A DNA stretch of 63,990 bases, filler included, from Rhizaria sp. SCN 62-66 (lineage: Eukaryota), in the NCBI GenBank assembly GCA_001724265.1. It is 4 parts of 4 records of this genome, joined end to end, with 100 filler letters (N's around TTAATTAATTAA, not from the genome) between each part and the next. Parts side by side here need not be neighbours in the genome. Positions count along the whole stretch, not along the records: positions 25,967 to 41,601 come from MEDY01000496.1; 3 more parts are not named here. One strand, given 5' to 3'. The translations under genes and the position numbers were made by a program. Under the pieces are notes generated by a model that saw nothing but the letters and a program-made list of their open reading frames with translations, searched no databases and had not been told where the DNA came from. This document shows positions 9,485-56,857 of this stretch, in pieces (position 1 is the stretch's first letter; each line of letters begins with the position of its first letter).

Positions 9485-12400
9485 CAACCAACCGCAGCGG
9501 CCGCCGCGTGAGTAGCGTTGACGCGCGTGCCTGCGATGGCCGCGGCGAGCGCGTCGGCAAAGGCCGCGTCGGCGCACATGGCGTCGAGTGCGGCCTGCGC
9601 GGCTGCGGCGACGGCGTCGGCGCCCGCAGCCTCGGCGGCAACGACCGAGGCCGTGGCGGCGCGCACGTGCGTCTGCTGCGCGTAGACGGGGTGCCAGAGC
9701 AGGCGCGCGAGCGGGCCCGTGAGCGTGTGCGCCACGCCCTCGAGCGCGGTCCACTCGGGCCCCACCAGCGTCGCGCCCAACGTGCGCGGCGCCGGCAGCA
9801 CCGGCGCCGTGGGCGGCACGCCCGGCGCGCCGACGAGGCCCGCCGAGAGCAGCGCTGCGGGCGACGCCGCCAGCGCCTCCGCCGGCAGCGCCAGCGGCGC
9901 GGGGGCCGCAGTCGCTGTGGCTGCGGGGGCACCGGCAGCAGCGGCGGCGGGCGCAGGCACGGGCACGGTCACGGAGATGGGGACCGCGGTCATGAGGACC
10001 GCAGGCGGGCCCGCGGCGGCGCTGAGCAGCGCGTCGAGGAACGCGGCCGTGACGGCGCCGGCTTCGGACGCGGCGTGGGGCTTGTGCTTGTCGGCGTGCG
10101 CCTCTGCGCCAGCGGCGGCGGTGGCCGCGGCGGCCGCGGCGGCCTCGGAAGACAGTCCCGCGAGCGCGGCGGGCAGCGCGCCCATGGGGGCGGCGGCGGC
10201 GGCGCGGCGCAGCAGTGTGGCCGCCACGGCGCCGAGCCCGCAGGCAGCACGCCCGCGCCCGCTGGTGCGCCCGCGGCGGCGGCGGCGGCCTCGGCGCAGA
10301 AGCGCGCCAGCGGGGAGCGCGCGAGCACGGCGGGCAGCGTGACGGCGGGCAGCCCGCGCAGCGCGAGGCGGCCCTTGACAGTTACCGACGCGGGCCCGCG
10401 GCGAGACGCAGACGCGTCGCCGGCGCCGTCATCGTTGGTGTCGCTAGACTTGGTCTCGGCGAGCTTCGAGGTGATAGTGAGGGGCACGGACACGGCGGCA
10501 GCCTTGCGGCCGCGGCCCAGCCCGCCGTCGCGGCTGCGGCCGGCGCCGTGGCCCGCCGCGAAGGATGCCACGCTCGTCGTGGGCGCCGCGGCGGGCGCGC
10601 CGGCAAGCGTGACGGCGGCCAGCAGCGCCCGCTGGCCGTGGTCACGCCCGCCAAAGCTTGCGCCGACGCAGGCAGCGGCGCCGCGGCGGCCGCGGTCGAG
10701 AGCGCGGCGGCGGAGGCGTCGCCGGCGGAGCGCGGGCGCGCGGGCGAGGCCTGCTGCGAGGACGCGGCGGAGCTGGGCGAGGCGAGCCCGATTACGGCGA
10801 GGTGCTGCTGCTGCTGCGCGACCGAGCGCGACTGCGAGTAGAGTGGCGCCTGGCCCAGCTGCGTCGGCGACAGGATCAGTAGCGATAGCAGCCGCGCGGG
10901 CGGCGCGTACCACACCGGCCGCGCCCAGCACTGCACCGGGACCGGGGCCGCGGCGCTGGTGTCAGCCTCGACCACGCCGCTCTCGGACTCGCCGCTCGCC
11001 GCCGCGGCCGCACTCGCGCTGTCGCCCGCAGGAGCAGCATCCTGTTGCTGGTCGTGGTCGTAGTCCTGGTCGAGCTCGGGCTCCTCGCCCTCTTCGAGCC
11101 CGATGACGGCGACCGGGTCGGGCTCGTCGCCCTCGGCGTCCTCGGGCGGGGACGCGAACACCACGTGCGGCAGCTCGCCCACGCCCGCGGCGCCGACCCA
11201 CCGCGCGGGGTCCTCGCACAGCGTCTCGACGGACCGCAGCAGCTGTCCGCGCGCGACGCGCGGCGCCACCACGCGGCCCATCGCGGCCACCGCGCCCAGG
11301 CACGTCTGCCGCACCTGCCACACCGGGTCCGCGCACAGACGCAGGAAGAAGGGCAGCAGCTTCCGCGCAGTCGCCGCGCGAAGGCTGCTCACCGTCACCA
11401 CGGGCGCCGCCGGCGCCTCGGGCACGGGCTCCACAACCTCAGCCTTCGCAGCCTCGGTCTCCACCTTCACAGTCTCAGTTTTGGCAGTCTCAGCTTTGGC
11501 CGTCTCGACAGCTTCAGCCTTTGTAGCAGTTGCGTCGCTGTCAGATGCGAGCTGAACTGCGACGTCAGCGGGCGCTGCGACAGGCTCTGTGCTCGCGTCG
11601 GCGAGAGCGTTCGCGTCGGCGCTGGCCTTGGACTCAGCCTCGGTGCCGGCCTCAGTCTCGGCCTCAACCTTGGCCTCCGCCTTGGCCTCTGTCTCGGGCT
11701 CAGTTTCCGTCTCAGTTTCCGTCTCAGTCTCTGTCTCCGTATCCGTGTCGGTCGCCTCGCCGCGAGCAGCCTTGGCCTGAGCCGCAGCGTCCGCGGCGGC
11801 CTCCGCCGCCGCCTGTTGCTGCGCCGCGACGACGGCTTTGCCGGCGGCGACCACGGCCTCCGCGGCCTTGGCCTCAGCCTCGGCGCGCGCCTCCTCAGCC
11901 GCGGCGCGGGCCCTCGCAGCGGCGGCGCGAGCGGCCGCGGCGCCGCCGGCGCGCGGACGGGGCGGCATCTCGATGCTGGTGGTGACGGCCGCGGCGGCGG
12001 CGACGGAGATGGGACCGAAGCACGCGGCCGCGCCCCAGCGCACCTGCATTACGGGGTCGTCCGCGAAGGCGACTAGCTCGGCCGAGAGCAGCGACGCGCA
12101 CAACGAGGGGTCCAGCGACGGCGCGATGCCGCGCAGCGTCGACAGCGCCGACACGCGCACGTCCTCGGGCGCGGCGTGCGCCAGCGGCAGCAGCTGAGGC
12201 AGCAGTAGGTCCGACACGAGCGTCGTCGCCGTGGGGTGCGTCGCCGCGCCGTGCGCGCGCGTGAAGGCCGGATCCAGCAGCTGCGCGGGCGGCCGCGGCG
12301 GCGGCGGCAGGCGCGCCATCGCGATGGCGGCGTCGCGCGCGCGCTCACGGATCTGTGGGCAGCGGTCCGCCAGCAGCATCACCAGCACTGGCAGCACGTG

Positions 12401-19496: not shown

Positions 19497-20578
19497 GCTT
19501 GCCGCGCGCGCTGTGCTAATACGGCCGCGCTCACTTCGACTGGCTGAGCGCGCGATCGATCGCTTGGTTTCAACTCACGGTCACATTTTGACCGTTGTAC
19601 ACACAGTTAGACTCAACAGTCTTTTTGTTTTTATTCTCTTTTATCTTTCACTACCACTACCCCCACCCACGTACTAGTGCGCTCCCTGCGCATTCCGCAC
19701 GGCCGAACCCAGCCTCCTCTCTCGCGCTCGGCTCGCACAGTCTGTTGAGAGGGCTGGCTGTCCACGACGTTGCTGTGCAACACGAATCACGTTGGATTTT
19801 TGTTCTTTTTCGCGTTGCTTTTCCTTGTTAATCGTTTCTTTATAGTTTGTTCACTTTGATTGCCTGTGAATACTTCTTTCATTTTCTTCGTTTGGCGTTT
19901 TCCGACAAATGCCTGCTCGTTTGCTTGTTCGTTTCTTTTTATGTTTTGTTTATTAACTGTCCCTTCTGTTTATTGCTTCCCGTTGACCGCTGCTCGCAGT
20001 CCCCCGACTCCGGCTCTGCTTTGCGTCTCGCCGCCGCCGCCGCCGCTGCCTTCCTTGTTGCTGTCTGCCGCTGCCGGTGCTGCTGTAGCTGTTGCTGCGC
20101 GCCCCTCCGCGTCTCCTCCCACAATCATCCCACCGTTTTCCTCCAATCAACCCTCCATGCCCTGCGCTTTCACACAGCGACACACACACACACCCAGACA
20201 CCGCACGCCTCACTGCCCTGCGCGGCCGTCGGGCATACCATCGTTCGTATGTCCCGTGCCGCACTGCACCGCAGTGTGTCTCCCTGTCTGTGTCTGCGTA
20301 TTTGTGTCCGTAGCGCAGTGTGCTGCCTTCGCCTGCACGTGCTCTATTTTCTATTGTGCGCGGGCGTTTGGCGCACACTGGTGCCGCACTGCTGCTCTGC
20401 TTATTTATGTTGTTGTCAACGTAGTCGTTGTTGCTGCTGTATCGTCCGTCCGCTGACATTGTGTCGTCAGTGTGTTACCAGTGTATTGTCAGTGCATTGC
20501 CAGCACACCGCGCCGGCCGGGACCGGGGTCCGTCCCCAGCCTCTCCCGCCTCGCTTACCCAGGCACCCGCACCGTCCC

Positions 20579-20617
20579 ACACACGCACACACACACACAC
20601 ACACACGCACACACGCA
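20579..20617. repeat. Imperfect (CA)n microsatellite in the region between two convergent genes
   Basis: acacacgcacacacacacacacacacacgcacacacgca. Confidence 0.8.
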
Positions 20618-21080
20618 GTCCAACGGCAAACAACGACGCCGCTGTCACTGCACACACACAGCACACGCATAGCGCGCGCACAGCGCCACCCGCAACAACA
20701 GCATCGCGACGCGGCGGCGATCTGTGTGCGACAGAGAGACATTGACTGCGGCTGCGCTGTGTCGCGACTGCAGCACGCGCGTCAAACGTTCTATCAGGGG
20801 TTGGGGTGTGCGGGAGAGAGAGGCGCGGAGGCGTGCACTCGGCAAAGCAGGGCGATGCAGCGCGGCGTGACACGCCAGCTGCGAGGCCCATTGCTGTCAT
20901 ATTATCTAGAAAATACACATATCACTAACTATTATGTCTACATTGAGCTGTTCTTTCTCGTATCCGTATCACGATTGCTAATGTATCAAGAGTTATCATT
21001 GTATTTTCTGGCCCGGAGTCGGCCCATCATTGCGAGCTTAAAACACTTATTCATTGCTGCGAATAAAAGCGACACAATAT

Positions 21081-21918
21081 TCAAGCCGCACTCTCCTTCG
21101 CGTCCGTCTTAGCAGCATTGCCGTCGTCACTGTTGCCGTCGCCGTCGCCGTCGCTGTCACTGTCGGCCATGTTCAGCGCCCCCGCCCGCGCGCGCTCCTC
21201 GGCATCGCGCGCCTGCAGCTCCTCCGCTCGCGCGCGCTCGAGCGCTTGGGCCTCGGCGCGCGCCTCAAGCCGCAGCAGCCGCTCGTCGTCCTCGTCGCGG
21301 AAGCCGTAGTACTCGGCGTCGGCGACCTTGGCCAGCTCGCCGCGCTTGCGCCTCGGCGCCTCAGCCTCGCGCCGCTCGAAGAGCTCGCGCACGCCGGGTA
21401 GGTCCTTAGCGGCGCCGAAGTACAGGTAGCCCTCGGTGCCCAGCGCGCGCCGGCCGTCCTGGTCCACCACGCGCGCGGCGGCGCCCGCGGCGGCGTGGTC
21501 GGGCCCGCCGAGCGCGCGGATCTGCGCCTCCCAATGCGTCTTCTCGCGGAGGCGCTTGTTGATGGCGTCGTTGAGGTCGCGGATTCGGAACTCGCCCAGC
21601 CCGGCGTTCTGGATCGCAGCCACGTCGCGGGAGATCTCGCGGATCACCTGCCGCCGCCAGCGCTCGCACTCGTCCACGTCGGTGCACTCCGAGGCCAGGT
21701 GCGGGCGCCGCTGCGACGCCGCCGGGTTCGCCTTCTCCTCCTGGTTCTTCAGGAAGAGGTTCAGCAAGTCTGTAAGCGTACAAGGGGAATCGCACAATAT
21801 TGAGTCAAAACAGGAGTGGATTCGAAGTGAGCGGTGTTTTAGTGTCAGAGGATGGATATCATTGCGTGGTTTCGTTCGGTGGCGACGTACTGTTAGCCTT
21901 TTCTTGGTTACGGGCCAT
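21081..21918 (-). CDS. ISY1: Pre-mRNA splicing factor ISY1; exons 21918-21891 and 21769-21081
   Basis: MARNQEKAN start, GTACGT...TACAG intron, then RRPHLASEC...CERWRRQVIREIS...IQNAGLGEFRIRDLNDAINKRLREKTHWE..I..LGGP..GYLYFGAAKDLPGVRELF. TGA stop. Confidence 0.96.
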
Positions 21919-22672
21919 TGACCTTGCTGCGAGGTGCGAAGTTGGGTGGGCGCAACACGGGTGTACAGAAAGAAGAACGAGGAAATTACAAAATTGTTAA
22001 GTGATTAAGAAAATAAAAAGTGATATTAATACACAAGAGCGTCATGATGTGTTATAAAACCGTATTTGGAGAGCTGGGTATGAGTCCGAATGTTGTTGTC
22101 CGTTGAGGCAGAGGTAGACCAGCAGTGCTAGGAAAAGTCGAACAAAAAAGAGGATAGTTTGCGCGACAGGAATCGTCGAAGAAACGTGTTCAAAGAAATC
22201 CGAATAATATATCACGGTTTCAATTCGGTCATCTTTTTAGACAATATGACTTGGTCAGGTTCGAAAGTTACATGCGATATTCGATGGCCCACTTTGACTT
22301 CGGTTCTGCTGTGTGGCCGGCTGCATGTTGGATCTGTGGTCTAGGTTTCTTTTCATGTACCACACTTTAGGAAACGACGATGTATTAGTATGCTTGCCGT
22401 TGTACCGTATATGCGACTGTGTAGAATCCAGATATCGTGCCAAACGCTCTCCAGACCTCGTAAAATCATGTCTATATCTCGAAATTACTTTGTCCTATCA
22501 CGTACTCGAGTCTAGACCCACCTATCTCCGACGACATATATCTCACGTATACTAAAAGCGATTGAAACAAAACTTACAAATCAACAACCAAACTGTGTTA
22601 TGTATCTGTTTTCTATAGGTTTAGCTTTAACCGCGTTTGTTTACCTCTTCCGAGCCAGAACATCCTTGACCA

Positions 22673-23587
22673 ATGCTGTCGCAGCTGCGCTTCACCGCCC
22701 GCGGCGCCCACGTACTGCGCCCCACGCTGCGCCCGCTGCTCCCCTTCTCCTCGCCTCTGCTTACGGCCCCCGCGCGACGCTACTACCCTGCCGAGCTGGC
22801 TGACATTGGCGGCGACACCCGGCCCCGTCGCAGCTCCAACAGCAACAGCAGAGGCTACCACACTGTGGGCATGGGCCTCGACATGGCCGGCGACTATGGC
22901 CACAGCTACGGCCACGGCCACGGCGGCGACAGCGGCGGCGCGCCGAGGTGGCGCGCGACGACGATCCTGGCGGTGCGCAAGGCGGGCCGCGTGGTGGTCA
23001 TCGGCGACGGCCAGGTCTCGCTGGGTGCGAGCGTGGTCAAGCCCAACGCGCGCAAGGTGCGCCGCATCGGCGGCGGCGCCGTTGTCGTTGGCTTCGCGGG
23101 CGCCACGGCCGACGCGTTCACGCTACTGGAGCGGCTCGAGGCCAAGGTCGATGAGTTCCCCGGCCAGTTACTGCGCGCGGGCGTTGAGACGGCGAAGCTG
23201 TGGCGCACGGACAAGTACCTCAAGCACCTGGAGGCGATGCTCATCGCGGCCGACGAACACGTGTCGATCTGTCTCACGGGCAACGGCGACGTTATCGAGC
23301 CGCACGACGGGCTGCTTGCCATCGGCTCGGGCGGCAACTACGCGCTTGCCGCGGCGCGCGCGCTGGTGGACGTGCCGGGGCAGGACGCGCTGGCGATCGC
23401 GCGCAAGGCCATGGGCGTCGCGGCCGACATGTGCGTCTACACCAACCACAACTGGGTCATCGAGGAGATCGAGATCACGGCCAAGGCCCGGGGCGAGAGC
23501 GAGGAGGCCGCCAAGGAGGGCGACGTGCTGAGCAAGGGCGGCGCCGAGGGCGCTAGCAAGGACGGCGGCGCGGCCGAGAACAAGTGA
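22673..23587 (+). CDS. hslV: Mitochondrial ATP-dependent protease subunit HslV (ClpQ) with about 95-aa presequence
   Basis: Mature N-terminus TTILAVRK (Thr at 22958), [44 protein letters not shown]. Arg/Leu/Ser-rich N-terminal leader. TGA stop. Confidence 0.96.
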
Positions 23588-24080
23588 GCGCACAGTGAGG
23601 TGTTCAAGTTGCGATGATACGGGCCAGTCGTTTTAAGTAAGGCTCAGCGAGTGATAGTGGCAATGTTTAAGTCAAATACACAAGTATATCAATAGAGATG
23701 AAGTAGTGCAGTGTAGTTGTTAGTTACTCACAAAAAATAAGAACGTGCGCAGATATAGCTGCATGTGAAGTTGCTTTGTCACATAATATCCTTTATGTGG
23801 TGGGCTGTGATCAAAGCAAGGTGTTTGAAAATTGTTATTTTCAAGATCGCACAACTCATTGATATTTCCGTTAGGCAAGATTTCCGCCAAGTGTGACATT
23901 AAACACTGTGACTTGCACATGATCTCTTTATTATTCACTCTAACACTCACGTCAACACTCAATATCTCAATCCCCCAACAGTGGTAGCCAAGAAGGCAAT
24001 TTGGTCACGTTTCTCTGACACACCCATTGCCAAAAGCCGGAACCCCGCACTCACGCTCTCTGTGAGCCCACCACACGCCG

Positions 24081-25866
24081 ATGCAACAGCCCCCGTTGTA
24101 CCCGTTTGCGCCGTCCACGCCCCCGCGCCCGCCGGTGCCCCGCTCGGCGTCGGCATCATCGTCGTCGTCGACTGTGCCGCTGTCGGCGCATCTCGCCGCC
24201 TCGCCCTCCTACGCCTCCGCGCGCTCCGGCCCGCTGGCCGGCTACAACGCCGGCGACACGCTCGCGATTGGCGCTGGCATGCTCTCGCTGTCCGCGCTGT
24301 TCCCCGACCCCTGGTCCGTCCCGCTCTCCTCACTCCTGTCATCGCTGCAGCACGCAACGGCCGCATCCGCGTCCTCAGCGTCTTTGAGCAGCGGCTCCGC
24401 GCCGCCCAGCGCCCGCGCGCGCGTCCCCACGCCCGTGGCCGAGGGCCCCGGCTCTGCGGCCGCTGGCGGTGGCGCTGGCGCGGGCACGGGACTGTCGTCC
24501 GAGGCGGACTGGCTGGCGTGGGAAGGCGGGCACCTGCTCGACGCGCTCGCGCGCCTGGCTCTCGCGCGCCACCTTGACTCCGAGCGCGTGTCATTCGCGC
24601 TCGCCACGCCCCCGCACCCGCCCGCGCCCGCGGCCCTCGCGGGCTCCGGCACCAGGGTCAGCAGAGCCGGCGCTGCTGCCTCGTCCGCCGCTGCCTTGAG
24701 CGCCACTGCCTCGGCTAGTCCGTCGGCGCGGTGGCCGGTGTTCCCCGCGTCGGCGCTGGCCCGCGAGCGCGCGCTTGAGACGCTGCGCGTGGCCCAGGAG
24801 GACACGCTGCTGGAGCAGCTGTACCTTGCCGCGCTCACCGCACCCGGCCACGCGCTGCCTGCCGCCGTCGCCGCGCACGTCGCCGCGCCCTCGCCGCTCG
24901 CGCTCCCCGCGCTCGGCGGCAGCCATAATACGGGGGCGGGCGCGACGCACGACGAGCTGTGGGTGCAGGCACTGCGCACCGCGAGCTCAGGGCTGCCGCG
25001 CCCACCCGCCGCGCTGCTGCCTGCGGGCTACAGCGCGCCCCCACACGGCGCCAACCCGGGCCCCGCCGTCGTCGCCGCCGCCGCCGCCGCCGCCGCTGCC
25101 GCAGCCGCAGCCGCAACAGGGACCGCCGTTGCGGTGGCAGGCTCGGGCGCGGTGGCGGCGGCGTACTCGCCGGCAGCGCGGCTGCCCGCCAGCGCGCCGC
25201 CGCTGCTGCAGCCCGTCGGCGACTGGGCTGACCCCGCCGCGCTCGACGCCCTCCGCGCGCCGGCAGCCACGGCCGCCAAACAGCCCCGAGAGCATGGGCC
25301 GCAGGCTGGCGCTGCGGTGGAGCCGCGGTGGGCGCCGCTGGCGTCGCGCGCGGACCTGCGTCCGCTGGAGTCCCGGCTCTCCGCCGCCGCTGCCAGCGCA
25401 GCCGTGGACAGTGGCCGTGGCAGCGGCAGTGGCGGCGGTGTGGCGTGGGGCGGGATCGACGTGTACGAGGCCGCGGCGGGGCACGTGCTGGCCTCGGAGC
25501 AGGCCTTCCTGCGCGCGATGATTACAGCCGCGCGCGTGCAGCCGGGCGCGCCCGCCGCGGCGGCTTTCTCGCTTGTGCTAGGCAACGTCACGCGCGCGCG
25601 CCAGCGCTACGCCGCCGTGCTCGCCGCGCTTGCCCGCGCCACCGAGCCTGAGAGCACGGAAGACTCGGGCAGAAGCGGCGCCGACAGCGCGGCCGGGGGC
25701 GGCGGTACTGGCGGCGACGTGGCCGGGACAGATGGCGGCAGCAGCGACAGCGCGGAGGTGCCGTCGCGGCTGCCGCAGCTGCGCCAGCGCCACGCCGCGA
25801 GCGTGCTCCAGCGGGCCGCGCGCGCATTCATCTTCCGCCTCCGCTGCGCGCGCGCCGCCGCGGCCC
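24081..25866 (+). CDS. Ala-rich hypothetical protein with an IQ-like motif near the truncated 3' end
   Basis: Open frame from ATG 24081 to the contig end with genome-typical GC3 codon use. AASVLQRAARAFIFRLR resembles an IQ motif. Confidence 0.6.
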
Positions 25867-25966
25867 NNNNNNNNNNNNNNNNNNNNNNNNNNNNNNNNNN
25901 NNNNNNNNNNTTAATTAATTAANNNNNNNNNNNNNNNNNNNNNNNNNNNNNNNNNNNNNNNNNNNN
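25867..25966. other. Artificial contig linker (N44-TTAATTAATTAA-N44)
   Basis: Identical 100-nt spacer with six-frame stops occurs three times in the window. Confidence 0.98.
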
Positions 25967-26276: not shown

Positions 26277-27693
26277 TTACTCGTCCTTCTTGGCAGCCTT
26301 GGCGGCCTCCGCAGCGGCCTTAGCGGCGGCAGCCTCGGCCTTGGCGGCGGCTTCATGACCCTTCTCGTTCTTGTAGTCGAAGTTGAGCGTGAGACGGAGA
26401 CGTTCGTGGATCGCGAACGCAATGGCCATCGACGGAATCACTTTGAGCAGGCACGCGTTCAGGCCGCGGTACAGGCCGCGCACGCCTGCATAGAGAACAA
26501 CACACCAAAGACAACAGCCAAGAGAAAATGTGAAGTGAGTTGAGACTAATGAAAATTAATTGATGCGGCAGCATATACGTTAAAATCATACAGAGCTTAT
26601 CGAGAGGTTACATAAGATGCTTGTAAAATAGTACCTTCGGTCTTGATGGTGACCCGAACGCAGTCGAGCGCGCCGTTGACCGGAGCCATGTCGGCCGACA
26701 GCATCGACTTGCCGACACCCTGTAGCTGCACACGGCGGCGCACAACATCTGTCGGGTACGTGATCAGCGCGGCCACGCCACCCGACACGCCGCCCAGAGC
26801 AAGGTTCACCACCGTGAACGACGGGTCGTCGCGCGGGGGCAGGAAGCGGTGCTTGAGCGTGTCGAACACGAAGAAGTTGATCGCGCTAGTTTAGTGAAAA
26901 ACAATTATGAATTGAGAAACATAAAGACCAGTGAGAATTTAATGCGTGAAATTGTTGTCTCAATAGTGCTACTTGCAGCTTCGATCTCATGAACCAAGTT
27001 AGAACAACTTTCATTAAAAATCATAGACTTCATATCATGAAAAGAACAGTGAAGAGATAGCGTGACCTACATGTAGGGCGTGATGCCTGCGAGTGTGGCA
27101 ACGCAGCCGCGGAAGAGCCCACGCATGCCATCGGCCTTGTGGATGGCCTTCATGGTGCCCCAGATGCCGTTGAACTGTCCGTGGTTGGTCTGTACGGTGA
27201 GGTAACTCCGCACGATATCAAGCGGGTAACAAATGAGCGACGATGTCGACCCCGCCAGCGCGCCCGCAGCCAGAGTCCACATCGGCGTCAGCTTCTCGCC
27301 GCCGCCGCCACCCCCGGCGGCCGCGACCGTGCCCGCGCGCGGCGCCTCGCAGGCCGAGGGCACGAGGCGCGTGAGGGCAACCTTGTACATGTCGAAGAAG
27401 AGGAACTGCAGCGCGGCGTTGGGTGCGATGCGCGCGACGTTGGTGCCGTTGCCCTTGAACAGGCCGCGCCAGCCTTCGGACTTGTACATGTGGCGCAGCC
27501 CGGAGACAATGCCGTTGTACTCAGGGTTCTTCTTGGACTGGATTTGCTGCATCACCTTGAGGCGCTCGAGGGGCGACGTCGCCGACCGGGAAACGGCGCC
27601 CGCGATAGCGCCGGACAGGCCGTTGATCGTCGTCTTCCACGCCGACTCAAGCCACGTGGACTCCTTGGAGGCGGAGGTGCGGGCGGTGGACAT
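26277..27693 (-). CDS. Mitochondrial carrier (SLC25; adenine-nucleotide/CoA carrier-like); exons 27693-27071, 26885-26635, 26485-26277
   Basis: Three PX[DE]XX[KR] signatures (PLERLK, PLDIVR, PTDVVRRR), plus GLFKGNGTNVARIAP and GLYRG. GT-AG introns restore the frame (PYI|AINF; TEG|VRG). TAA stop. Confidence 0.93.
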
Positions 27694-28204
27694 CGCGCTA
27701 CGACGGTCTGTTGTGGCGATAAGTCAACAGAGCGTGAGCCGAGGCAGGACACGGGGCGCGACGGACATAGGGGGGAGCAGAGGTGGCAAAAATGTGAGTG
27801 CGCAAGTGAAACTAAAGCCGCAAGAAGTGAAAAAAATTATGGTATAATAAAAAGGTAAATTCTCATTGGTGGTACCGTAGTTAACGCTATAGACGGATTG
27901 TGCATAACACATTCAATTCTTGCGCAAAGCCACTTCGAGTGACCGTGGCTTCAGGACGGCGAGAGTGGCCATTTTGCGGCGTGCGAGGCTCGCTTTTTGA
28001 ACGTTAATATCCTTGCATAGTTAGACTGTGCACGAGTGTGAATGGCCTTAATAAGGACCCCGTTGCGCCGGTTATCTATTTCGTTTCTGAAATGCGCTTT
28101 AAATTCGCGTTTACGCTGTAAAAATTCCCAATCCTATTTGCATGTCGAATCTCACCCTCCCCAAACCTCTTCACTTCCTGTTCCATCATCAGGCGCAGAG
28201 TCGA

Positions 28205-31200
28205 ATGTCCGAGTACCCCGCGTCCTTGCTCGGCGAGAGCGGCGAAGCTGCGGGTTACATTCCCATGCAGCTGGACCAGCGCGGTGCCACGTTCCTGGAG
28301 GCGTGCGGCATCCCTTACACAGGCATCCGCTACTGCCCCGACCGCGACACTTCAGACAAGACGACCGCGGCCGCGGCGGCTGCGTCGGGCCAGCCCGTGC
28401 CCAAGACGCGCGCCTTTGTCGAGCGCGCCAACGTGCAGTAGCACTACATCGTCAAGACTCTCGTGTTCTGCGACTCAAAGCAGACGCAGGCGTTCGTGGT
28501 GCTGATGCACGGCGACTGCCGCGTTGATATGAAGAGCCTCGGCAGGCAGATCGGCGTCCCCAAGATAGTCCAGGCGCCCATCGAGATGGCTCAGGAATGG
28601 TCCGGCTACATCATGGGCGGCACCTCGCCCTTCGGCCTTGCGCGCCCCATGCAGGTTCACATCGAGAAGTCCATCCTCGACCTTCCGCACAAGATCATCA
28701 TCAACGCCGGCCGCCACGACTCGTACTTGCTCATGGAGCCCAAGGACATAGCGCGCGCATTCACCACCGAAGCCGCCGTCGCCGCGGGTTTCCCCCAGAT
28801 CAAGGTCGTCCAGTGCGGTAAGGAGCGTCCCCCGCCCGCCCCCCTCGGCGGCGGCTCTGATGCCGCTGCCACGGCCGCTGCCGCTGCTGCAGCGGGCTCG
28901 CCCGCTGCTGACGCCACCGGCGCTGCGAGCCCCATCTCTCCGTCAACTGGCACGAAGCGTCTGGTGACCGGCCCTGCCCCCGCGCCCGTGGCGCCCTCTC
29001 TGGCCGCTCTTCAGGCCGCCGCGGCCTCAGCCGAGCTGCCCGCCTCCGCGACCACCGCGCAGCACATCGTCGACGCCCTCGACACCGCGCTCGCCGAGCT
29101 CGAGGTCCTCACTTCCATGTACCCGCAGAACAACGTCCACCCTGACGCCGCCAGCGCGAGTGCGAGTGCCAGTGCGGAGTTGGACCTGCGGGTGGAGCCG
29201 GCGACGCTCGTGGTGGACCTCACTGCGGCGCGCGCCAAGCTCGCTGCCGCTGCCAAGCGCAAGGAGCCCCTCCGCACACATAACCCCGCTGCGCTCGGTC
29301 TGCCCGCCTTCATCCTCACCGTGCGCGACACTGCGGCCGAAGGCACGGGCTTTGCGCTGGCGCTCACGGCCCCGGCCGGTTACCCGCTGCTGCCGCTGTC
29401 GGTGACGCCGTTTGTCCCCGGAGAGGCCACCGCGCGCCCCGGCCTGCGCGTGCTCGCCGCGGAACTCGACGCTGAGGCCGGCCGCTGCGCCGCGGCGCGC
29501 GCCGAGGCCGCTTACGCCGTTGTTGAGCTTGCTAAAACGAGCTTCGGCCCCACGGTCGCTAACTACAAGAACGGTGCGAGCGCTGCCGCAACCACGGCCG
29601 CCGCCGCCGCCGCCGCTGCCGCTGCGCCGGTAGTCGTGCTTCCCGGCCGCGGCGCATCCGCCGCTGCGGGCGCCGCCGTGGCCGCGGGCGCGATGCGTTC
29701 GACCGTGCGCGCGCCTGAGTCTGCCTCGACTGGCGACGGGCTGCTGCAACCGGGCCCGCTGACCAAGCCCACGGGCGAGCTGGCCGTGTTCAAGCCGACG
29801 CTGAGCACCGCCGCGGCCGCCGGCGAGGGCCCCTCGCAGTCGCAGCTAGTCGGCGCGGGCGTGCGTTGTCTCGCGACGAACCGCGCCACTGTGGCCGACG
29901 ACGACTCAGACTTCCGGTCGACGTATGTCCCATTGTTAGGCCGCCTCGTTGTGGGCGAGAAGGGCCGGCCGAAGGAAGTGGCGGAGCTGTCGTCACCCAT
30001 GACCGCGATTGCGCCCGGCGCCGCGATCCGGTGGCTGGGCAAGCCCAAGAGTCAGATCCGCCTCGGCTTCGTCGGGCTGCCCAATGTTGGCAAGAGCTCG
30101 CTGTTCAACCTCGTGTCGGGCATGCAGGTACGCGCTATCGAGAGCAACAATGACGGCCATGGCAACAACACGAGCAAGAGCAACGGTCGCATGGCCACTG
30201 ATGCTGTATCGACTGCGAAGGCTGCTGCTTCAAGCATCGGTGCTGCAATCAGCGGCGCTGTGACTGCCGCCGTGCTGCCGCTGCAACAATCGCAGCCGTT
30301 GTCCGTATCAACAGTCCTCGCCTCGCTCATGTATGTTGTCGCGTCATTGATGTCATGTAGTCTATTCCTTAACATGAACATATCACACACTGTTTGGTTT
30401 CATATTGTTTTTCATGTTTACCCACAACGTTAACAATCTCTCCTCTGCTCATGTTCTTTGCTTTCACAACATCTCGTGTTTAGGTCCTGGCGGAAAACTA
30501 CGCTTTCTGCACCATCGACCCCAACGAGGCGCGTGTGCCTGTCCGCGACGACCGCGTCGAGCGCGTTGCGCGCTGCTTCCGCACTGGCTCCAACGCCAAC
30601 TCTGGCAGCAGCAACAGCGGCAGCAGCGGCAACAGCAGTCACAACACCGCGGTTGGAACCGTGCACGACGCAGCCTCGTCCGCAGCCCACCAGCAGGCCC
30701 CGCCGAGTAACTGCACGTTCGCGTCCGTGGACGTCATTGACATCGCGGGGCTTGTCAAGGGCGCTTCGCTGGGCCGCGGCCTTGGCAACGCGTTCCTGCA
30801 CCACATTTCCACCGTGCACGTGATCTTCCAGGTTGTGCGCGCCTTCGATGACTTGGAGGTGGTGCATGTTGAGGGCGCGCTGGATCCTGTGCGCGACATC
30901 GAGATCATCACGGCCGAGCTCATTGCCAAAGACACCGAGGAGATGTGCAAGCGCATCGAGCGCGCGGCGGGCAAGTTGTACCGCTCCATGGTGCAGTCGC
31001 AGGGCAAGGAGCTGCGCCGCGAGTTGGCCATCCTGCTCAAGGCGTACGAGTGGCTCGTCGCGGGCCGCTGCCTGCGCCACTGCGCGTGGACCGAGCCCGA
31101 GCACGCGTACCTGTCGACGCTGCAGATGTGGACGTCGAAGCCGACGTGCTTCTTGGTCAACATGTCTGCGCGCGACTATGCCGACGCCGTCCAGCGCTCG

Positions 31201-32262
31201 GAGCAGTGCGCACGCGTGCAGGCCTGGGTGGACGCCAACTCGCCGGACTCGGCCGTGGTCCCTATCAGCGTCCGGTTCGAGCAGGCCGCGCTGCAGTGCC
31301 CGCCCGAGGCCAAGCGCGAGTTTGTGATTGACGTCGCCGAGCGTATGGCTGCCGTCGCCGCAGAGTCCGCGGCCGCGCGTGTCCGGGCTGAGGCTATCGC
31401 CGCTGAGCGCGCTGCGAGCAAGGACAAGAAGGACAAGAAAGATAAAGGCGACAAGAAGGACAAGAAGGAGGGCGGCAGCAGCAGCAGTCGCAGCGCCAGT
31501 CGCACCGGCAGCCGCAAGAGCTCCGACAAGGACAAGGACGCCGACAAGAGGGACAAGAAGGACAAGAAGGACTCCAAAGACAACAACAAGGGTCCTGAAG
31601 GCTCTTCTAGCAGCGCGAGCTCTGCGCAGTCCACCGACCCCGAGTGCGGCGGCGCGAGCGAGAGCGAGAACGGCATCCCCACGGCGGTGCCCGTCGTGCG
31701 CATGACTGAGGTCGTCGCCCTCGCGCGCGGCGAGCGCCCCACCGCGGCCGCAGACGCAACGGTGCAGAGCGCGTGGGCGCGCGCCGTGTGGTCTTGTGCG
31801 CTCGGTGCTGTGTGGCAAGAACGCACCGACAGCGGTGCCGCGGCGGCCGACCCGTCACACGCCGCCGCCGCGGGTGCGGTGGGCAACGCAGTGAGCGCGG
31901 ACTGCGAGCCAGCGCGCGGTCGCGTGGGGCTCCAACCGCGCGAGACGAGCGCGCTGCACTTGCTGATCCAGGCCGGGTACCGCGCGTGCGATATGGTGCG
32001 CGTGTACCTTATTGGGGAGGACTCGCACGTCAAGGCCGCGTTTGTGCGCCGCGGAACGCCCGCCGGACAGGTGTCGGGGCTGTTGCACCACGAAAACCCC
32101 GACCGGTGCACCGCAGTCCAGGTCTACCCGTGGGACGCGTTCGTCGCGCAAGGCTACGCGCTGGACGCGATGCGCAAAAATAACACGCGTCTAATCAAGA
32201 CCAAGGCATATGAGGTCCAGGAGGGCGACATTCTGAGCTTTACGCTGAAGCCCGCCGCGTAA
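28205..32262 (+). CDS. YbaK-type aminoacyl-tRNA deacylase + RWD + OLA1/YchF-like OBG-family NTPase fusion; exons 28205-30127 and 30484-32262; contains in-frame TAG at 28439-28441
   Basis: YbaK: KTLV, GYIMGGTSPFG, INAGR. RWD: ELEVLTSMYP...LTAPAGYP. YchF: GFVGLPNVGKSSLFN, AENYAFCTIDPN, DIAGLVKGASLGRGLGNAFLHHI, VVRAF, VHVEGALDPVRDIEII..EL, YEVQEGDIL. TAA stop. Confidence 0.88.
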
Positions 32263-36285: not shown

Positions 36286-38718
36286 TCAGCGACGCCCCTT
36301 GCCCTTCTTGCGTCCCTTGCCGCCGTCGTCGCTGTCGCTGCCGGTCGTATTCTGCTGCTGTTGCTGCTTGTTGCCCTGTGCGCGCTTCTGCGCCTGCGCA
36401 ATACGTTGCTCGAGCTCCTGCTTGGCCTTGCCGCTGACGGCCTGCCCCATCGCCAGCTTCACCTGCGTCTTGCGCAGCCGCAGTGCGTCTGCGCGCGCCG
36501 CCGCCAGCTCCGCGGCCTTCTTGGCTGCCGCAGCTTCCTTGGCGTTCAAGGGTGCAGCCCCAGGCGCAGCGCCGGCGTCGGGTGTGGCAGCGCCAGTCGC
36601 CACGGGGGGGGCGGATTGCTTGAGGAGAGTCTCCTCGACCTTAGTGCGCAGACGGCGCAACTGCTTTGGGTTCAGCTTCTTGCCCGCTGACTGGCGCACC
36701 ACCTCCGCCTGCACGCGTGCCTCAAAACCATCATCGTCGCCGTCGCCGTCGCCGTCGCCATCATCTTCTTCCTCCTCCTCTTCGTCGTCGTTGTCATCGT
36801 CATCAGAAACAGGAGCAGGCTTACCCTTGCTCTTGGCGCTAGCGGCGGCCTTTGCAGCCTCAGCAGCCTTTGCATCCTTGGCGGCCTGGCCAGGAGACGT
36901 GATGTGGGTCTTCTGCAAGCGCCGCTGCAGCAGTGCGACATAGTGCGCGCGCTCAGCTGAAGTCAGTTTGCCGCTCTTGATGCGCTCCGCAATCGTCGTC
37001 AGAGACACATTCTCTGCTTCATCGTCGTCCTCATCCTCGTCTTCAAGCTCATCCTCATCCTCGTCCTCGTCAAAGTCTTCGTCATCATCTTCCTCCTCGC
37101 CGTCGTCAGCAGCAGCAGCTGAGGCAGAAGCAGCAGCGCCCTTCGCGGCCCCGCTTTCCTTGGCAACCGCAGCTGCAGCCTCGCGCATCTGCCGCTCTTC
37201 CTCCAACAGCTCCTGCTGCATGCGCTGCCGCACCTCGGCCACGCGCGCCTTGTGCTTCTTCGTCTGTCCGTGTTGTTCCCACTGCGCCTCGGACCGGAAC
37301 GAGCTGCGGCACGCCTCGCACACAAACGCCACGACCTCCTCGTCTTCCTCTTCGCTCTCACCGTACTGTTCGATGTGCAGCCGCCGCGCTTCTTCCGCGT
37401 CCGCCTCGGCGGCCTCCTTCGCCGCCGCCCGCGCCGCGCGCTTGGCCTCGGCCGCCTCGGCCGCGCGCGCCGCCGCGACGGCAGCGCGCGCGTCGCGCAG
37501 CGCCTGCTCCTCGCGCTGAACGCGGGCCCACCGCGGGTCGCGCCGCTGCAGCGTGGCGACAAGGCGCCGCACGGTCTCGTTGAACTCGCGCTTGGCGGCG
37601 CCTCGCTGCTTGGCGTTGATAGTGTCGATCTGGCGCCGCTCAGCGCGGTTGCCGCCGTCGTGCACGTCGTACTTGTCGTGCCACGCAAACGAACGCCGCG
37701 TCTGGAAACCTTGCCATGCGGCGTAAAAGGCGCGCACCGCCGCGCCGCCGCTGCGGGACGTGCCGAAGCCAGGCAGACGGCGCAGAAGCTCGGCGACCTG
37801 TGGGCCCGCGCCAGTCGCGAAGCTGGAGTTAGTCTTGGCGGAGTCCTTCTGCTGCTGTTGCTGCTGCTGTTGCTGGGGATTGGGCTGGGGAGTGCGGTGC
37901 GGGAGCGGCGAGCTGGGCGTGGACACGTCGTCGTCGATGTCGTCAACGCCGCCAGTACTGTAGGAGTTACTACTACTGTTGCCGTAGCCAGGGTCGTCAT
38001 CGATATCGTCGACGCCGCCACTAGACGAGCTTGCGGTCGCGTCAGTGGACTGCTTGTTGCTGCTAGAAGAGCCGTCGTTCTCAGCTTCGGCGGCGTCCGC
38101 GGCGGCTTCGAACGCGGCGGCAGCGGAGTCGAAGTCAGCGTCGCTGAGCGACAGCGCAAGCTCCAGCCCCTCGAGTGACACAATCGTGCGGAACACGCGC
38201 CGAAACACGGCGAAAAAGCCGCCGGGGCCGTCGCCCAGGCCAGAAAACGCCGTCACGGAGAAGTACGCCATCAGGTTGATTCCGTCCGGGTGGTCGTCGG
38301 GCTCACCGCTGCCGCCGCTGGCGGCGCCGCGCGCGCGCCCGCGCAGGAGCGCCTCGCGGTGCGAGTTGTACCACGCGCGCTCCTGTGGGTCTGAGAGAAC
38401 CTCGTACGCCTCTTGTACGCGCTTGAAGAGCTCAGCAGCGTTCTCCTCGTTGTTCTGAAGATGGAAGTGGGGGCAATGACAATGGCAGTGAAGATTGGCG
38501 TGAGAAACTAGAGCAGATTTCGGGGTTGTTAGGGCAAGAAACTATACGGTCTGGCCATAGTAAGAGCACGCGAGAACGATTTAACTTACATGGTTGCGAT
38601 CAGGGTGGTGCTGAAAGGCAAGCTTGCGGTAGGCGCGGCGAATCTCGTCGTCGTCAGCCTTGAGGGTCACGCCCAGCACCGCGTAGTGGCACTGCGGCGC
38701 GCTGGGATCAGCGCTCAT
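36286..38718 (-). CDS. DNAJC21: DnaJ homolog subfamily C member 21 (Jjj1-like; J domain + C2H2 zinc finger); exons 38718-38590 and 38454-36286
   Basis: CHYAVLGV...[20 protein letters not shown]...TTCAG intron, [46 protein letters not shown]...[33 protein letters not shown] stop. Confidence 0.93.
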
Positions 38719-41601: not shown

Positions 41602-41701
41602 NNNNNNNNNNNNNNNNNNNNNNNNNNNNNNNNNNNNNNNNNNNNTTAATTAATTAANNNNNNNNNNNNNNNNNNNNNNNNNNNNNNNNNNNNNNNNNNN
41701 N
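41602..41701. other. Artificial contig linker
   Basis: N44-TTAATTAATTAA-N44. Confidence 0.98.
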
Positions 41702-49101: not shown

Positions 49102-52100
49102 TTACAATAAATAGCGTTTGAGGTCCATCTCGACCTCGTCCTCTTCCTCCTCCCACTCGAAGTCAACATCCTCCAGCAGCGGATTCAGCTCACGAGCCAC
49201 CCACACTGCATCCACCAGCGCGTAGACCCACACGCCGTCCGCGGGCCCGCGCCGCGCCGTTTCTTCGGCCTCTGCCGCGGTCATTGTCTCCAGGGACTCA
49301 GTTGATGGCCGCGCGGGACTTAACCCGGCCGCCCAGGGCCGCGCGCGCACTTCCGCCCGCGCGGCCGCAGCAGCATCGCCGGGCCCCGCAAGCGCACATA
49401 GCTCACGCCACTCCTCCGCGGCGCGCGCCACGAGCGCGGGCGCGTGGAAACTCAGCCGCTCGAGCGCGGCACCCACCACAGTCTGCAGCCGGCGCGCGCC
49501 GATGTCGTCCTCTCCGTGGCCCTGGTTGTGCGCCGTCCCGCCGTGTGAGCGCGCCGCGGAGTGGTGCTGCGGGGATACAGAGAGCAGAGGTGCGGCGCCC
49601 AAGGCTTCGCGGGCGCGCGCGGCGTCGCGCTGGCGGCGCGCGTGCGAGAGCCGGCGCGGGCGGTACATCGGCGAGGTCCACGCGCGCCACGGGTCACTCT
49701 CCTCGCTGGACTGCGCCGCCGAAACGGCTGAGTCAGCAGAAGTCGTAGCAGTGGCAGTCGCATCGGTCCCGTTCGTAGCTGTGCAGTCGCTCTTGTTCGC
49801 TTGCGACGATGAAGACATAGATAGAGATGAGTCGGCTGTGGCTGCCCACGCGCCCTTAGCTGCGAGCGCGGTCTCCGCGGCGGCCTCATCCTCCTCCGCC
49901 GCCGCGTCAGCCGCGTCAGCCTCGGCCTCTGCCTCCGGATCGCGTCCGTTGAGCCCCACCGCGGCCTCCGCCAGCGCGCGCGCCGCGCCCGCAGTCGCCT
50001 CGAGCGCGATGCCCTCAGAGCGCAGCAGCGCCGCATGCTGCCGCAGCAGCGCGCGCTCGCCGGCGACCAACACGCGCGCCAGCGCGGCGGGGCCCAACGG
50101 GGACAGGTCCGCACGCAGCGGGAGACGGCCACGCAGTTCGGGCAACAGGTCCTCGGGCCGCGAAACGTGAAACGCGCCCGCGGCAACGAAGAGCACGTGC
50201 GTCGTGTCCACAGGGCCGGCCGAGGTCTTAACGGTTGTACCTTCCAGCAGGGTCAGAAGCTCCTTCTGAACGCCCTCACCTTTGGCCCCCAGCGCGCCCG
50301 CCCCGGTCACAATACTCCCGTCGCCGTTTGACACCGAGCCGGGTGCAGGCGCGTACTGCTGCTGTTGCTGCAACAAACGGCGGCGGCGACGCGCAGCAGC
50401 GGCGCGCACCGCCTCGCTCGCGCCCGCTGTATCTGCGTTAGTTCCAGCCTCCTTGGTGCGGCGCGAGAGCAGTGCACTCTTGCGGGCCCGCCGCGCCGCC
50501 GTGGCCGCCGCCGACGCCGACGCAACGGCGCCGCCGACGCCGCCCGCGCGCGCGGCGGAGCGCCCGGGGCGCGCGAGCTTATCGACCTCGTCGAGGAACA
50601 CCACGCCCGCGCTCGCGGCGGCGCGCGCGGCGACGGCGTCGAGCAGCGCGCGGGACAGGGGCGCGGGCGGCTGCGGATGCACCGCGGCCGCGGGTGCGAG
50701 CGCAGGCGCGGGCAGCGGGGCGGCGGCGGCGGCGGCGGCGTGCGGCGCGGCGACCGAGGCGGGGATGGCCCACCGGTGCGCGAGGGAGTGCCGCAGACGG
50801 GCCAGAGCGGCGGCGGCGGACACGCGGGAGCGCGGGCCGGGGGCGGCCGCCGCGGCGGCGACTGCCAGCGCTGCTGAAGGATCAAGCGGGGGCATGCCGG
50901 CGCCGTGACTGCCGCCGCTGATGCCGCTATGTGCAGTGCCGCCGATGCTGTTGTGGCTGCCGTGGTGCGAAGGCGCGACGCCGAGGCCGAGGGAAGCCAG
51001 AGAGGAGCGCAACAGCGGGGACGTCCCCGCGCCGCTCGCCCTGAATGAGCCGGGCGACGACGACGATAACATAGACGATGACGATGACGAAGAAAGCGAC
51101 GATTGCGACAAGGCAGATGACGATGACAGATTAGACAGCTCACTGAACGCAGTGCCCGCGATAGGCACCAGTGAAGAGGTCTCGCCGCGGTTGAAGGCGA
51201 CAGAGTCCGATCCAAGAGTGTACTGGCCAGACGCGGCGTGACTTTGAGTCAACGCGGCCTGACTTTGCGTCAGCAGACGGGCCTCGTAAGCGGGGTCAGC
51301 GTCATCGTCTTGGTAACCGCCGCCGCCGCCGCCACCGCCGCCACCGCCGCCGTGAACAGAGTCGTTGCCCCCGCCTAAGATGCCGCCCAACAGCGACGCG
51401 AGCGGCACCTGCATCGCCCCACCGCCCCCGCCGCGCCCGCCGCCGCCAAGGACGAGCGCGCCGCCCGGTGCGGCGGGGCCGGCGGTTGCAAGCGCGTGGG
51501 CCAGCCCCAGCGCGTCGGGCGGCGGCGGCGGCAGGGCGAGGTCGAGAGAGCACAGCAGCAGCGGCAGCGGCGCGGGCGCGGCCGGCAGTGCAAGGGTTAG
51601 CGAGGCCGTCGCGGCAGTGGCGGCGGCGAAGGCGGCGGCGGTCGCGGCCAACGAGGGCGCTCCGGGCAGCCACGCAGCGAGACTGGCGCCGTAGCCGCTC
51701 AACTCGTTATCCTAATCCTGATCGCGATCATCGCTGCGACTGGGCCGAGTGGTGGTGGGGACGCTCTCCGACGCAGACACGGGGGCGGCAGCATCTGCGT
51801 CCGCACTCTTGTTCGCAGCAACAGAGGCAGTGCCCGCGTTGATACTGTTGTCGGGCTCGATCGGGGCGACCTCGATGACAACAGAGCCGAAGATCGAGCC
51901 AGACAGCCCACTCACCCCGCCGCCGCCGCTGCTTTCACTGTCAACAGTGTGGTTCATAGACCCGGCAAGCGGGGAGTCACGCGCGCCAGGCAGCGCAGGC
52001 AACAAGTCCCAGCTCGATCCCATGGCAGTTGAAGCAGATGCTGCGTCCACAACGGTGGAGTTCGACGGCATCGCGGTGGTGTAGCCCACAGGAGAGCCCC

Positions 52101-54189
52101 TGCCGCCGCGGTGGTTGTTGCCTGGAACGACCGTGTAGGCCGCCACACGCTGTCCCCTCGCAGTACTGGCCGCAGACTCACTCTTCCCCTTGTTGGCCAG
52201 CGCACTCGCACTGACGTTCGGAGGTGCGGTCAGAGACGCGGGTTGATTCAGCGTCGGGGACTGAGCAAGCAGTGCGCGCCAGAGCGCAACACCGGCCACA
52301 AGCGGGGGCGCGGCGGCCACGGCAGCGCGCTGCGCAGCGAGCGCGGCTGCGGCGGCCACGGCGGCCACGCGAGCGGACTCGGCCGCGGCGGCAGCAGCAG
52401 CGGCGGCGGGCGAGAGCGACAGCGCAGGAGGCTGCACCGCCGTCACCGCAGTGTACGCAGCAGCGCCAGGCAGCGCGCTAGCGACAGCAAAGCTTGAGGA
52501 AGCAGCATTCGCAACGTTACTGCAACTGCCACTCTTGTTTTCAGTGTGAGAAGCCCAGAGATCAGTGAAAGGCAGGAGCATTTCGCCGAGTAATAAGCGC
52601 TCAACCTCGTCATCCCCCGCAACCCCATTGCCGCCCTCTGTCGCCGCCGCAGCTGCCGCACAAGAAGTGACCGTGAGTCCCGTAGGGAAGAAGTTAAGCC
52701 GCGTGTCCGGATGCGCCAGCAAAGCGCGTTCGTACGCAGCCCGCGCATGCGCCTCGTCGCCAGTCGCGCCAAAAGCAGCAGCACTTGAGTCACCCAAAGA
52801 CGAAGCACCGGCAGTCGTCGCGGCAGTGGGTAGGCCGAAGGACGCGGCCAGCGCTGCGGCGTCCGCAGCGGCGACAGCGCGCGCCGCAGCTTCATACCGC
52901 GCCACCGCGTCGCCAAGCGTCTCTGCGACAGCGGCACTGATCTCCACGGCGTCGTGCTCAACACTCTGCTGTGTTACGGTCGACTGCGCAGTGGCAACAG
53001 CGGAGGCAGTTTGCGCAGCGGAGATAGCGGCGATCGCGGCGTCGACGCGCGCGAGCGGTGTCTTGGCCGCAGCGGCCGCAGCAGCAGAGAGAAACGCCTC
53101 CGCGGCCGCTAGCGCCTCAGCCACCTGCGCTGAGGCCGCCGTGACCGCCCGCACGGATGCGACGGCGACGGCCATCTCAGCACCACGCCGTTCGGCGCAG
53201 GCAGCGCGGCGGCACACGCGCGCGGGGGCCGGCGCGGGCACCGTAGTAACACGGTTAAAGCTCGATGCAGCGGGAGAGCTGGAGTGGCCGGTGGCGGCGG
53301 CGAGCGCGGCGGGAGCAGCGGCGGCGGCGGGCTCCATGCTCGGCGGCCGCGCGGGGCCCTGCATGACAGCGCGCGGCAGCGGCAACAACACAGGCCCGGA
53401 CGCACCCACAGCGGACGCGCTCGCGGTCAACGGCGCGGCGCTGGGCGACTGAGCGGAGGAGCAAGTAGGGCAGCGACAGTTGCTCTGCGCGAGCGCACGG
53501 CGGCGCACCGCTGCTTGCGCGACGAGAGCGCGCGCGTCGTTCGCCAAGTCGTCGACGAGAGTGCTAAGGTCTGTGCCGACCATGCCGACCTCGGTGAACC
53601 GCGTGGCCTCGGCGGCGGCGAAGGGCGCGCGCGAGAGCGGCGGAATCCACCCAGGGTGCGACAGCGGCGCTGTGAGATATGGTGCAGTCGCTACGGAGAG
53701 CGCGCGGGCCGCGGCGGCCGCGGGGGCGCGCAGAGCGGCCGCGGTGGGCAGAGCGGGGGCCGCAGCAACAACGGCCGAGGCGGCGGCCTTGACCAGCGCG
53801 GTCTTGCCGCTGCCGGTGGGACCCGTGAGCAGGATTCCGGCCGCGGCGGCGGGCGCGGCGGCGCGGCGCAAAGCGGGGTCTGAGACGGCTAAGCGGCGCG
53901 CGCGGGCGCGGAGCGCGACGGCGAGAGCGCGCTTGGTCGCAGGGTGGCCAACAATAGTGCGCGACATGGCCTGCACCAGCGCGCGCGGCGAGGGCGTCGA
54001 TGACAGCGGTAGCGGCGCGGCGGAGAGCTCGAAAGACGGGCAAGACATCGACGGAGAGGCTGAGGATGCAGTCGGGAGCGCAGAGAGGCCGCGGTGCGAG
54101 GTCGTCGCCGTCACCGTCACCGTCAGCGCAGAACGCGCTGCGGCGGAGACGGCGCGCCTGCTGTGAAGGTGCGAGAGCGCGCGGAACAT
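49102..54189 (-). CDS. hslU: Mitochondrial HslU (ClpY) AAA+ ATPase, 1695 codons when read through in-frame TAG 51712-51714
   Basis: Before the TAG: presequence, PRALV..IVG..KRALAVALR, Walker A GPTGSGKT, EATRFTEVGMVG. After it: Walker B GVVFLDEVDK, GEGVQKELL.LLEG, HVLFVAAGAFH..PEDLLPELRGRLP, DIGARRL, C-terminal DLKRYLL. Both halves are in the same frame. TAA stop. Confidence 0.9.
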
Positions 54190-56757: not shown

Positions 56758-56857
56758 NNNNNNNNNNNNNNNNNNNNNNNNNNNNNNNNNNNNNNNNNNN
56801 NTTAATTAATTAANNNNNNNNNNNNNNNNNNNNNNNNNNNNNNNNNNNNNNNNNNNN
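56758..56857. other. Artificial contig linker
   Basis: N44-TTAATTAATTAA-N44. Confidence 0.98.

Follow-up and report, generated by a model that had tools for sequence, protein, structure and literature searches.

Nuclear genetic codes nearly always reassign UAG and UAA as a pair, and the reassignments known to us that concern UAG alone are few, all of them well established. As far as the portions of the published account considered here go, the rhizarian exLh reads UAG as leucine and Iotanema spirale reads it as glutamine, UAA still being a stop in both (PMC5304391). The same portions count 384 in-frame UAG codons in 71 genes of exLh, terminated by 56 UAA and 15 UGA (PMC5304391). Among the ciliates, comparable sections of two reports describe codes in which UAG stands for glutamate and UAA for lysine (PMC10553269), as well as UAG reassignments in phyllopharyngeans (PMC11687900). 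A premature UAG can also be corrected by A-to-I editing, as occurs in 71 pseudogenes and in PUK1 of Fusarium graminearum according to the sections available of the corresponding studies (PMC10776026, PMC4817773). In the literature searched, supplements aside, we found no code variant described for activated-sludge eukaryotes and nothing relevant on alternative-code eukaryotic genomes from bioreactor metagenomes.

The locus described here belongs to a window (the whole stretch of DNA analysed, 63,990 nucleotides) in which three 100-nt linkers, each made of 44 N, TTAATTAATTAA and 44 N, at 25867-25966, 41602-41701 and 56758-56857, join four or more contigs from one bin into a pseudomolecule. On the forward strand, positions 28433-28465 read GTG CAG TAG CAC TAC ATC GTC AAG ACT CTC GTG. 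The TAG at 28439-28441 (+) is codon 79 counted from the ATG at 28205 and lies inside a YbaK-type domain, and the AAG at 28454-28456 (+), the fifth codon 3' of it, encodes the conserved lysine of the KTL motif, exactly as the preliminary description had read this stretch. In-frame ATGs are found at 28142, which the gene callers took as the start (P0005), and at 28205. The frame is open over 28103-28441 and again over 28442-30430, giving 776 open codons when the TAG is taken as sense, and this TAG is the single stop in the otherwise open frame of the gene. The first in-frame ATG 3' of the TAG is located at 28505-28507 (the methionine of VLMHGD), beyond KTLV, so a start there would indeed drop the motif, as had been noted from the sequence.

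The TAG interrupts the first domain of a fusion gene in which a YbaK-type domain, an Ala-rich linker of about 400 aa and a YchF/OLA1-like ATPase follow one another. The first exon (28205-30127, +) comprises the YbaK-type domain, the linker and the start of the P-loop GLPNVGKSSLFN, with the metagenomic protein P0003 aligning over residues 1-640. The second exon (30484-32262, +) encodes the rest of the ATPase, including a YchF-GTPase_C match over residues 513-587 of 592, and ends in a TAA at 32260-32262. Both Pfam matches to the ATPase fall just under their cut-offs (MMR_HSR1, 21.4 bits against 21.9; YchF-GTPase_C, 25.9 against 27); the YchF/OLA1 P-loop G1 GLPNVGKSSLFN is present, and P0008 and P0009, two orthologues without the intron, have the same fusion architecture. 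No Pfam family was matched in the linker, which may resemble an RWD domain, and no published YbaK-YchF fusion was found in the literature searched, supplements aside.

The match to Pfam tRNA_edit (PF04073) extends over residues 64-184 (28394-28756, +) and spans the TAG; with an X at this codon it reaches 72.9 bits (E 3.1e-20), where the cut-off is 25.5, and covers positions 3-122 of the 123 of the profile. The structure of YbaK (PDB 1dbu) aligns to residues 73-189, the KTL lysine falling on that of 1dbu, and in tblastn searches the alignments of bacterial YbaK genes to P0003 begin at residue 24, in one case at residue 5. The codons upstream of the TAG are therefore homologous to the N-terminus of YbaK, in line with the earlier statement that the 78 codons preceding the TAG are part of this domain. 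The window protein keeps all eight of the nearly invariant columns in an alignment of 148 homologues, and the nearly invariant residues G134, Y135, G138, G139, P142 and F143 are all present, as is the GG-SPFG segment. The KTL lysine (K84), which we take to be the catalytic residue, is a lysine in 122 of the 128 homologues that fill this column. By its PF04073 match, the window protein is thus predicted to carry a domain of the editing type. It shares the Pfam domain, the KTL lysine and the GG-SPFG segment with bacterial YbaK, the Cys-tRNA(Pro) deacylase (1dbu), and reaches at most 57% identity with the YbaK genes of Burkholderiales over approximately 95-110 residues; unlike bacterial YbaK, the window copy forms the N-terminal domain of a eukaryotic YchF/OLA1-like fusion and is broken by a TAG.

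Homologues indicate which residue would be expected at this codon. At the TAG column, 121 of the 148 best representative homologues have a residue, and glutamate is the commonest (67), followed by proline (19), leucine (10), alanine (6), glutamine (4), valine (3) and lysine (2), with 10 others; these frequencies had been proposed as a check on the initial reading. The six orthologues (P0003 and P0006-P0010), all metagenomic and 28-67% identical within the YbaK domain, align without gaps around the TAG and present glutamate in four cases and glutamine in two, followed by an invariant histidine. In the wider searches, a scan of genome contigs for matches to P0003 retrieved bacterial YbaK genes only, a metagenome scan for the fusion gene recovered only the organism's own 1156-bp contig, with the contig of P0003 absent, and a scan of viral contigs gave zero matches.

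The preliminary description had named a base-calling error and a micro-intron as the two findings that would overturn it, and neither holds. The 1156-bp JGI metagenome contig (L001) is 100% identical to positions 27381-28536 of the window, TAG included, and a DNA contig of run X3, which belongs to another study than the window's likely source, covers 27381-28595 with zero differences. The 99-aa N-terminal ORF that ends at the TAG (P0005) occurs on six contigs from JGI/IMG, Logan and ENA, and the ORF beginning just 3' of it (P0153) on three database contigs; some of these assemblies may share reads and are then not all independent, while the X3 and X1 runs come from separate studies. Because the TAG recurs in this way, a base-calling error is excluded, and TAG is the sole allele in every assembly seen so far. 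Among proteins of 352-1120 aa matching residues 1-210, none from the same species has a sense codon at this position, the only match being P0003 from another organism, and an intact allele is also absent among the top matches of the exhaustive protein search. The runs matching the window are bioreactor and wastewater metagenomes, and the populations sampled differ hardly at all in sequence. Four runs were compared, as contigs: the contig listed for X4 ends at 28345, and for the poly(A) RNA run X6 the pieces listed fall at 29069-29378 and in other genes, with no RNA contig over the TAG among them and no canonical intron joint among the listed matches of the four runs.

A micro-intron was considered since the nine nucleotides GTGCAGTAG (28433-28441) formally start with GT and end with AG. 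They resemble none of the four verified introns (two in a mitochondrial-carrier gene, one in a zuotin-like gene and one in the fusion gene), which measure 135-356 nt, have a GC content of 0.33-0.50 and end in 40 nt of which 65-75% are pyrimidines, and removal of the nine nucleotides would delete residues present in all six orthologues. Since these orthologues fill every flanking column, with glutamate or glutamine at the TAG column, a micro-intron is excluded. Taken together, a sequencing or assembly error and a micro-intron have hardly any probability left, and the TAG is a real, in-frame, non-intronic codon at a Glu/Gln column. The intron of the fusion gene itself (30128-30483, +; 356 nt, GTACGC...TTTAG) separates the P-loop from the AENYAFCTIDPN segment; P0008 and P0009, the orthologues that lack it, fix the exon junction, and P0003 runs into an intron at the same place. 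The earlier picture of AT-rich introns does not apply to the first 200 nt of this one, which have a GC content of 0.59. Elsewhere in the window, the TAGs at 27069-27067 and within 38589-38455 were set aside as intronic.

A second in-frame TAG is found at 51712-51714 (-), on the third contig, and is the only one in an HslU-like gene (49105-54189, -) that ends in TAA; given the linkers, it stands on a different contig from the YbaK TAG. The Walker A half of this gene lies 5' and the Walker B/sensor half 3' of the TAG, the two being separated by a low-complexity insert of approximately 945 aa. HslU (7mhb, E 1.1e-45) aligns in five colinear segments (query residues 71-140, 188-243, 1190-1217, 1301-1419 and 1565-1589), with chain residues 4-127 upstream and 232-402 downstream of the TAG, on both sides of the I-domain position; an intact HslU-like ATPase therefore needs this TAG to be read or removed. 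ORFs ending exactly at it are present on five database contigs, and the HslV-like partner has an intact ORF. Neither the insert around the TAG (residues 640-1010) nor the C-terminal ATPase part (1185-1420) matched any protein of 934-2974 aa, so no HslU orthologue gives a residue opposite the TAG. Removal by an in-frame 204-nt intron (GTGAGT...TTAG, 51915-51712) is an unlikely solution: the candidate has a GC content of 0.63 and a pyrimidine content of 0.47, unlike the verified introns, and its codon score of 0.386 bits per codon exceeds the coding mean of 0.306, a comparison to be read with caution as a verified intron, that of OLA1, reaches 0.25 in one frame over its first 200 nt.

These two TAGs stand apart from all the other stops of the window. 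Of the 166 stops that, over six frames, are flanked on each side by 60 or more open codons, only those of YbaK and HslU had coding-like sequence on both flanks, with flank codon-usage scores of 29-32 (training mean 23, sd 11.6) and 10.8 for the next-best stop; the result was unchanged with both genes left out of the training set. Over 15 ORFs and 13,388 codons there are two in-frame TAGs, zero TAA and zero TGA, or approximately 1.5 TAG per 10,000 codons. For the 12 GC-rich genes, the presumed terminators are six TAA and six TGA, with no TAG, in a small sample where homology backs four of the 12 gene 3' ends (OLA1, HslU, carrier and HslV). TAG and TAA are equally common in the off-frames of the same genes (68 and 70). 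If codon usage is taken into account, TAG is the outcome of 66% of the possible one-step nonsense changes, and the fact that both stops are TAG therefore carries little weight. A third in-frame TAG may exist in a MORN-repeat gene at 3327-3329 (-), where an ATG at 3356-3354 is followed by nine codons, the TAG and the repeat ORF, in whose first 100 or so codons there is no ATG; alternatively, a 5' intron may finish with this TAG, an upstream exon being spliced at or near it. An ORF on the low-GC fourth contig (61278-63005, -) ends in TAG and has a codon usage unlike that of the other genes, while the ORF at 19832-21109, which also ends in TAG, is no gene, having a Cys/His/Thr-rich translation and no Pfam match. 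ARAGORN detected no tRNA gene in the window, and thus no suppressor tRNA, and there were no Rfam matches in it.

From these observations we infer, as the most likely reading, that ribosomes pass through UAG, together with the residue inserted and the mechanism. UAG would be decoded as sense in at least a fraction of cases, with glutamate as the best fit and glutamine second, while termination would fall to TAA and TGA. A UAG-reading tRNA, a release factor with poor UAG recognition or both would act throughout the organism, with no signal specific to the YbaK-YchF gene involved. We tentatively favour organism-wide translation of UAG in this uncultured, GC-rich wastewater eukaryote, at a probability a shade short of even, and hold somewhat less firmly to its specific form, an early-stage, UAG-only reassignment outside the ciliates to glutamate (or glutamine), with UAA and UGA kept as stops. 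The rarity of sense TAG, at approximately one in 7,000 codons, suggests a young or inefficient reassignment. As the analysis started from a finding selected for the first TAG, the independent evidence comes down to four points: the second TAG on another contig, the lack of TAG terminators, the Glu/Gln column, and the single lesion per gene with motifs kept. The HslU TAG on another contig and the count of 0/12 TAG terminators shift the odds towards decoding.

The alternative that comes nearest is the standard code with two recent nonsense mutations, in YbaK and in HslU, fixed in a wastewater lineage, a rather doubtful explanation that still deserves serious weight. Under it the YbaK domain would be lost, leaving at best a truncated linker-YchF protein made from a downstream start. 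A single step is enough to produce this TAG, G-to-T from GAG or C-to-T from CAG, towards the stop that two thirds of one-step nonsense changes would create. In-frame TAG is very rare (2/13,388 codons), unlike in the known reassigned codes as far as the portions considered of the exLh account show (PMC5304391), and a readthrough signal is absent at the site. Since the sampled populations are nearly identical, one clonal lineage could hold both lesions, and fresh pseudogenes are plausible because HslU and a rare YbaK fusion are the kinds of genes often lost in evolution. The local data are equally compatible with the loss of a dispensable gene through a recent nonsense mutation. On the other hand, two disabling mutations would have to have arisen independently in a 64-kb stretch of about 15 genes, each of the two genes presents exactly one lesion, with neither a frameshift nor a second stop, all conserved motifs are kept on both sides of each TAG, no intact allele appears in any of the assemblies searched, the HslV-like partner is undamaged and TAG is absent from the 12 terminal stops of the GC-rich genes. 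The fusion gene has neither the several lesions nor the lost conserved residues by which a pseudogene is known, although a very recent pseudogene is plausible; it is intact in every other respect, and its TAG replaces a conserved Glu/Gln codon. By rough likelihoods, organism-wide UAG translation and a pair of recent nonsense mutations differ by no more than two- to threefold.

Two further explanations, gene-specific readthrough and RNA editing, appear much less probable. C is the leakiest +4 base after a stop in eukaryotes, and known readthrough contexts include CAR-YYA and CAR-NBA, the TMV type being UAG-CAR-YYA. The YbaK TAG is indeed followed by C, so a leaky UAG could give a 78-aa peptide together with the full fusion while termination remains otherwise normal. 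Its 3' context, CAC UAC, nevertheless fits neither of these motifs, and the downstream 122 nt fold like shuffled sequences (z -0.91 against -0.77 and -0.47 in controls). The HslU TAG has a different context (UAG-G; fold z +0.75), the stop is unconserved, with a sense codon in 6/6 orthologues, and it sits in the middle of a catalytic domain, where it has no obvious regulatory logic; gene-specific programmed readthrough is thus quite improbable. Restorative editing of the mRNA, for example A-to-I turning UAG into UGG (Trp) in the manner of filamentous ascomycetes during their sexual stage, is more improbable still. To our knowledge, this type of editing is known only in filamentous ascomycetes, and fungi lack HslU and HslV, for which this organism has similar genes. 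The minimum free energy fold, itself not significant, puts the UAG in a stem and not in a hairpin loop, and tryptophan is outside the eight commonest residues at the TAG column. What favours editing is the precedent of Fusarium graminearum, as reported in the available sections of those studies (PMC10776026, PMC4817773).

If organism-wide translation of UAG is true, a lineage with few sense UAG codons would represent an early intermediate, of the kind required by models of codon reassignment but seldom seen. Public wastewater data sets contain this organism repeatedly, and its code can therefore be tested with reads already available. If nonsense mutations are responsible instead, the two genes form an ordinary pair of fresh pseudogenes and a caution against inferring a code from single genes.

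Compared with the known systems, programmed readthrough of the TMV type shares with this locus a UAG followed by C; it differs in that here there is no motif or downstream structure, and the TAG lies inside a catalytic domain instead of preceding a C-terminal extension. Ascomycete editing, insofar as the sections available describe it, is similar in that single genomic TAGs occur in otherwise intact genes that need a post-transcriptional fix, and dissimilar in that the lineage is apparently different and the product would be a tryptophan at a Glu/Gln column. The UAG-only nuclear codes, in the published portions considered, share with this locus a TAG at a conserved column, here of glutamate or glutamine. 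As in codes of the exLh and Iotanema type, judged from the same portions, UAG is the only in-frame stop codon, and UAA and UGA are the only putative terminators of the GC-rich genes (six TAA and six TGA here). Unlike in exLh, where those portions record hundreds of in-frame UAG codons in tens of genes, only two are found here in about 15 genes, in a GC-rich, intron-bearing wastewater eukaryote. If UAG is decoded, the system would work as in exLh, Iotanema and some ciliates, at a far lower use of the codon.

At least four contigs, arranged longest first, make up the window, which is a pseudomolecule: each junction (25867-25966, 41602-41701 and 56758-56857) consists of a six-frame-stop linker, 44 N + TTAATTAATTAA + 44 N. 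Therefore, the neighbourhood of genes across these three points is not physical. The apparent ends of the ORFs at 24066-25919 and 54409-56802 are TAA codons of the linker. At the position of the HslU I domain, the HslU-like gene (49105-54189, minus strand) carries a low-complexity stretch of about 945 aa that is rich in Ala and Ser, and an ORF of the proteasome family (HslV-like; 22670-23584, plus strand) is located on a different contig. On the low-GC fourth contig, an ORF of 576 codons (61278-63005, minus strand) contains a P-loop (GNPGIGKT), ends in TAG and retrieved no Pfam match. Its codon usage is far from that of the other genes (GC3 0.49), and it may be foreign, mobile, or derived from another organism within the bin.

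In the zuotin-like gene, an intron of 135 nt (GTAAGT...TTCAG; 38455-38589, minus strand) interrupts the J domain past HPDRNH; its length is divisible by three, and it contains both TAA and TAG. Two giant ORFs on the minus strand, of 1722 codons (15550-10385) and 2142 codons (10428-4003), share 44 nt in different frames (region 10382-10428). The stop of the former is a TAA within GGTAAC, a possible splice donor, and the two ORFs could together represent a single gene of very large size that contains an intron or a change of frame. In the MORN-repeat gene (3327-3356, minus strand), nine codons separate an ATG, which has A at -3 and G at +4, from a TAG, and the repeats lie beyond this TAG. It either represents a third in-frame TAG, besides those of the HslU-like gene and the YbaK-YchF fusion, or marks where a 5' intron ends.

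The fusion is a single gene (28205-32262, plus strand) encoding a YbaK domain, a linker of about 400 aa and a YchF/OLA1-like ATPase. The first 200 nt of its verified OLA1 intron (30128-30329, plus strand) are open in the frame of exon 1, with a GC content of 0.59 and a codon score of 0.25 bits per codon, which resembles that of coding sequence; this stretch could reflect retention of the intron or the recent intronisation of coding sequence. Our literature search found no description of a YbaK-YchF fusion. The same YbaK-linker-YchF architecture is present in three metagenome proteins, P0003, P0008 (1395 aa, intron-less) and P0009. The YbaK part is nearest to YbaK of Burkholderiales (identity up to 57%), a similarity hinting that this part may be of bacterial origin.
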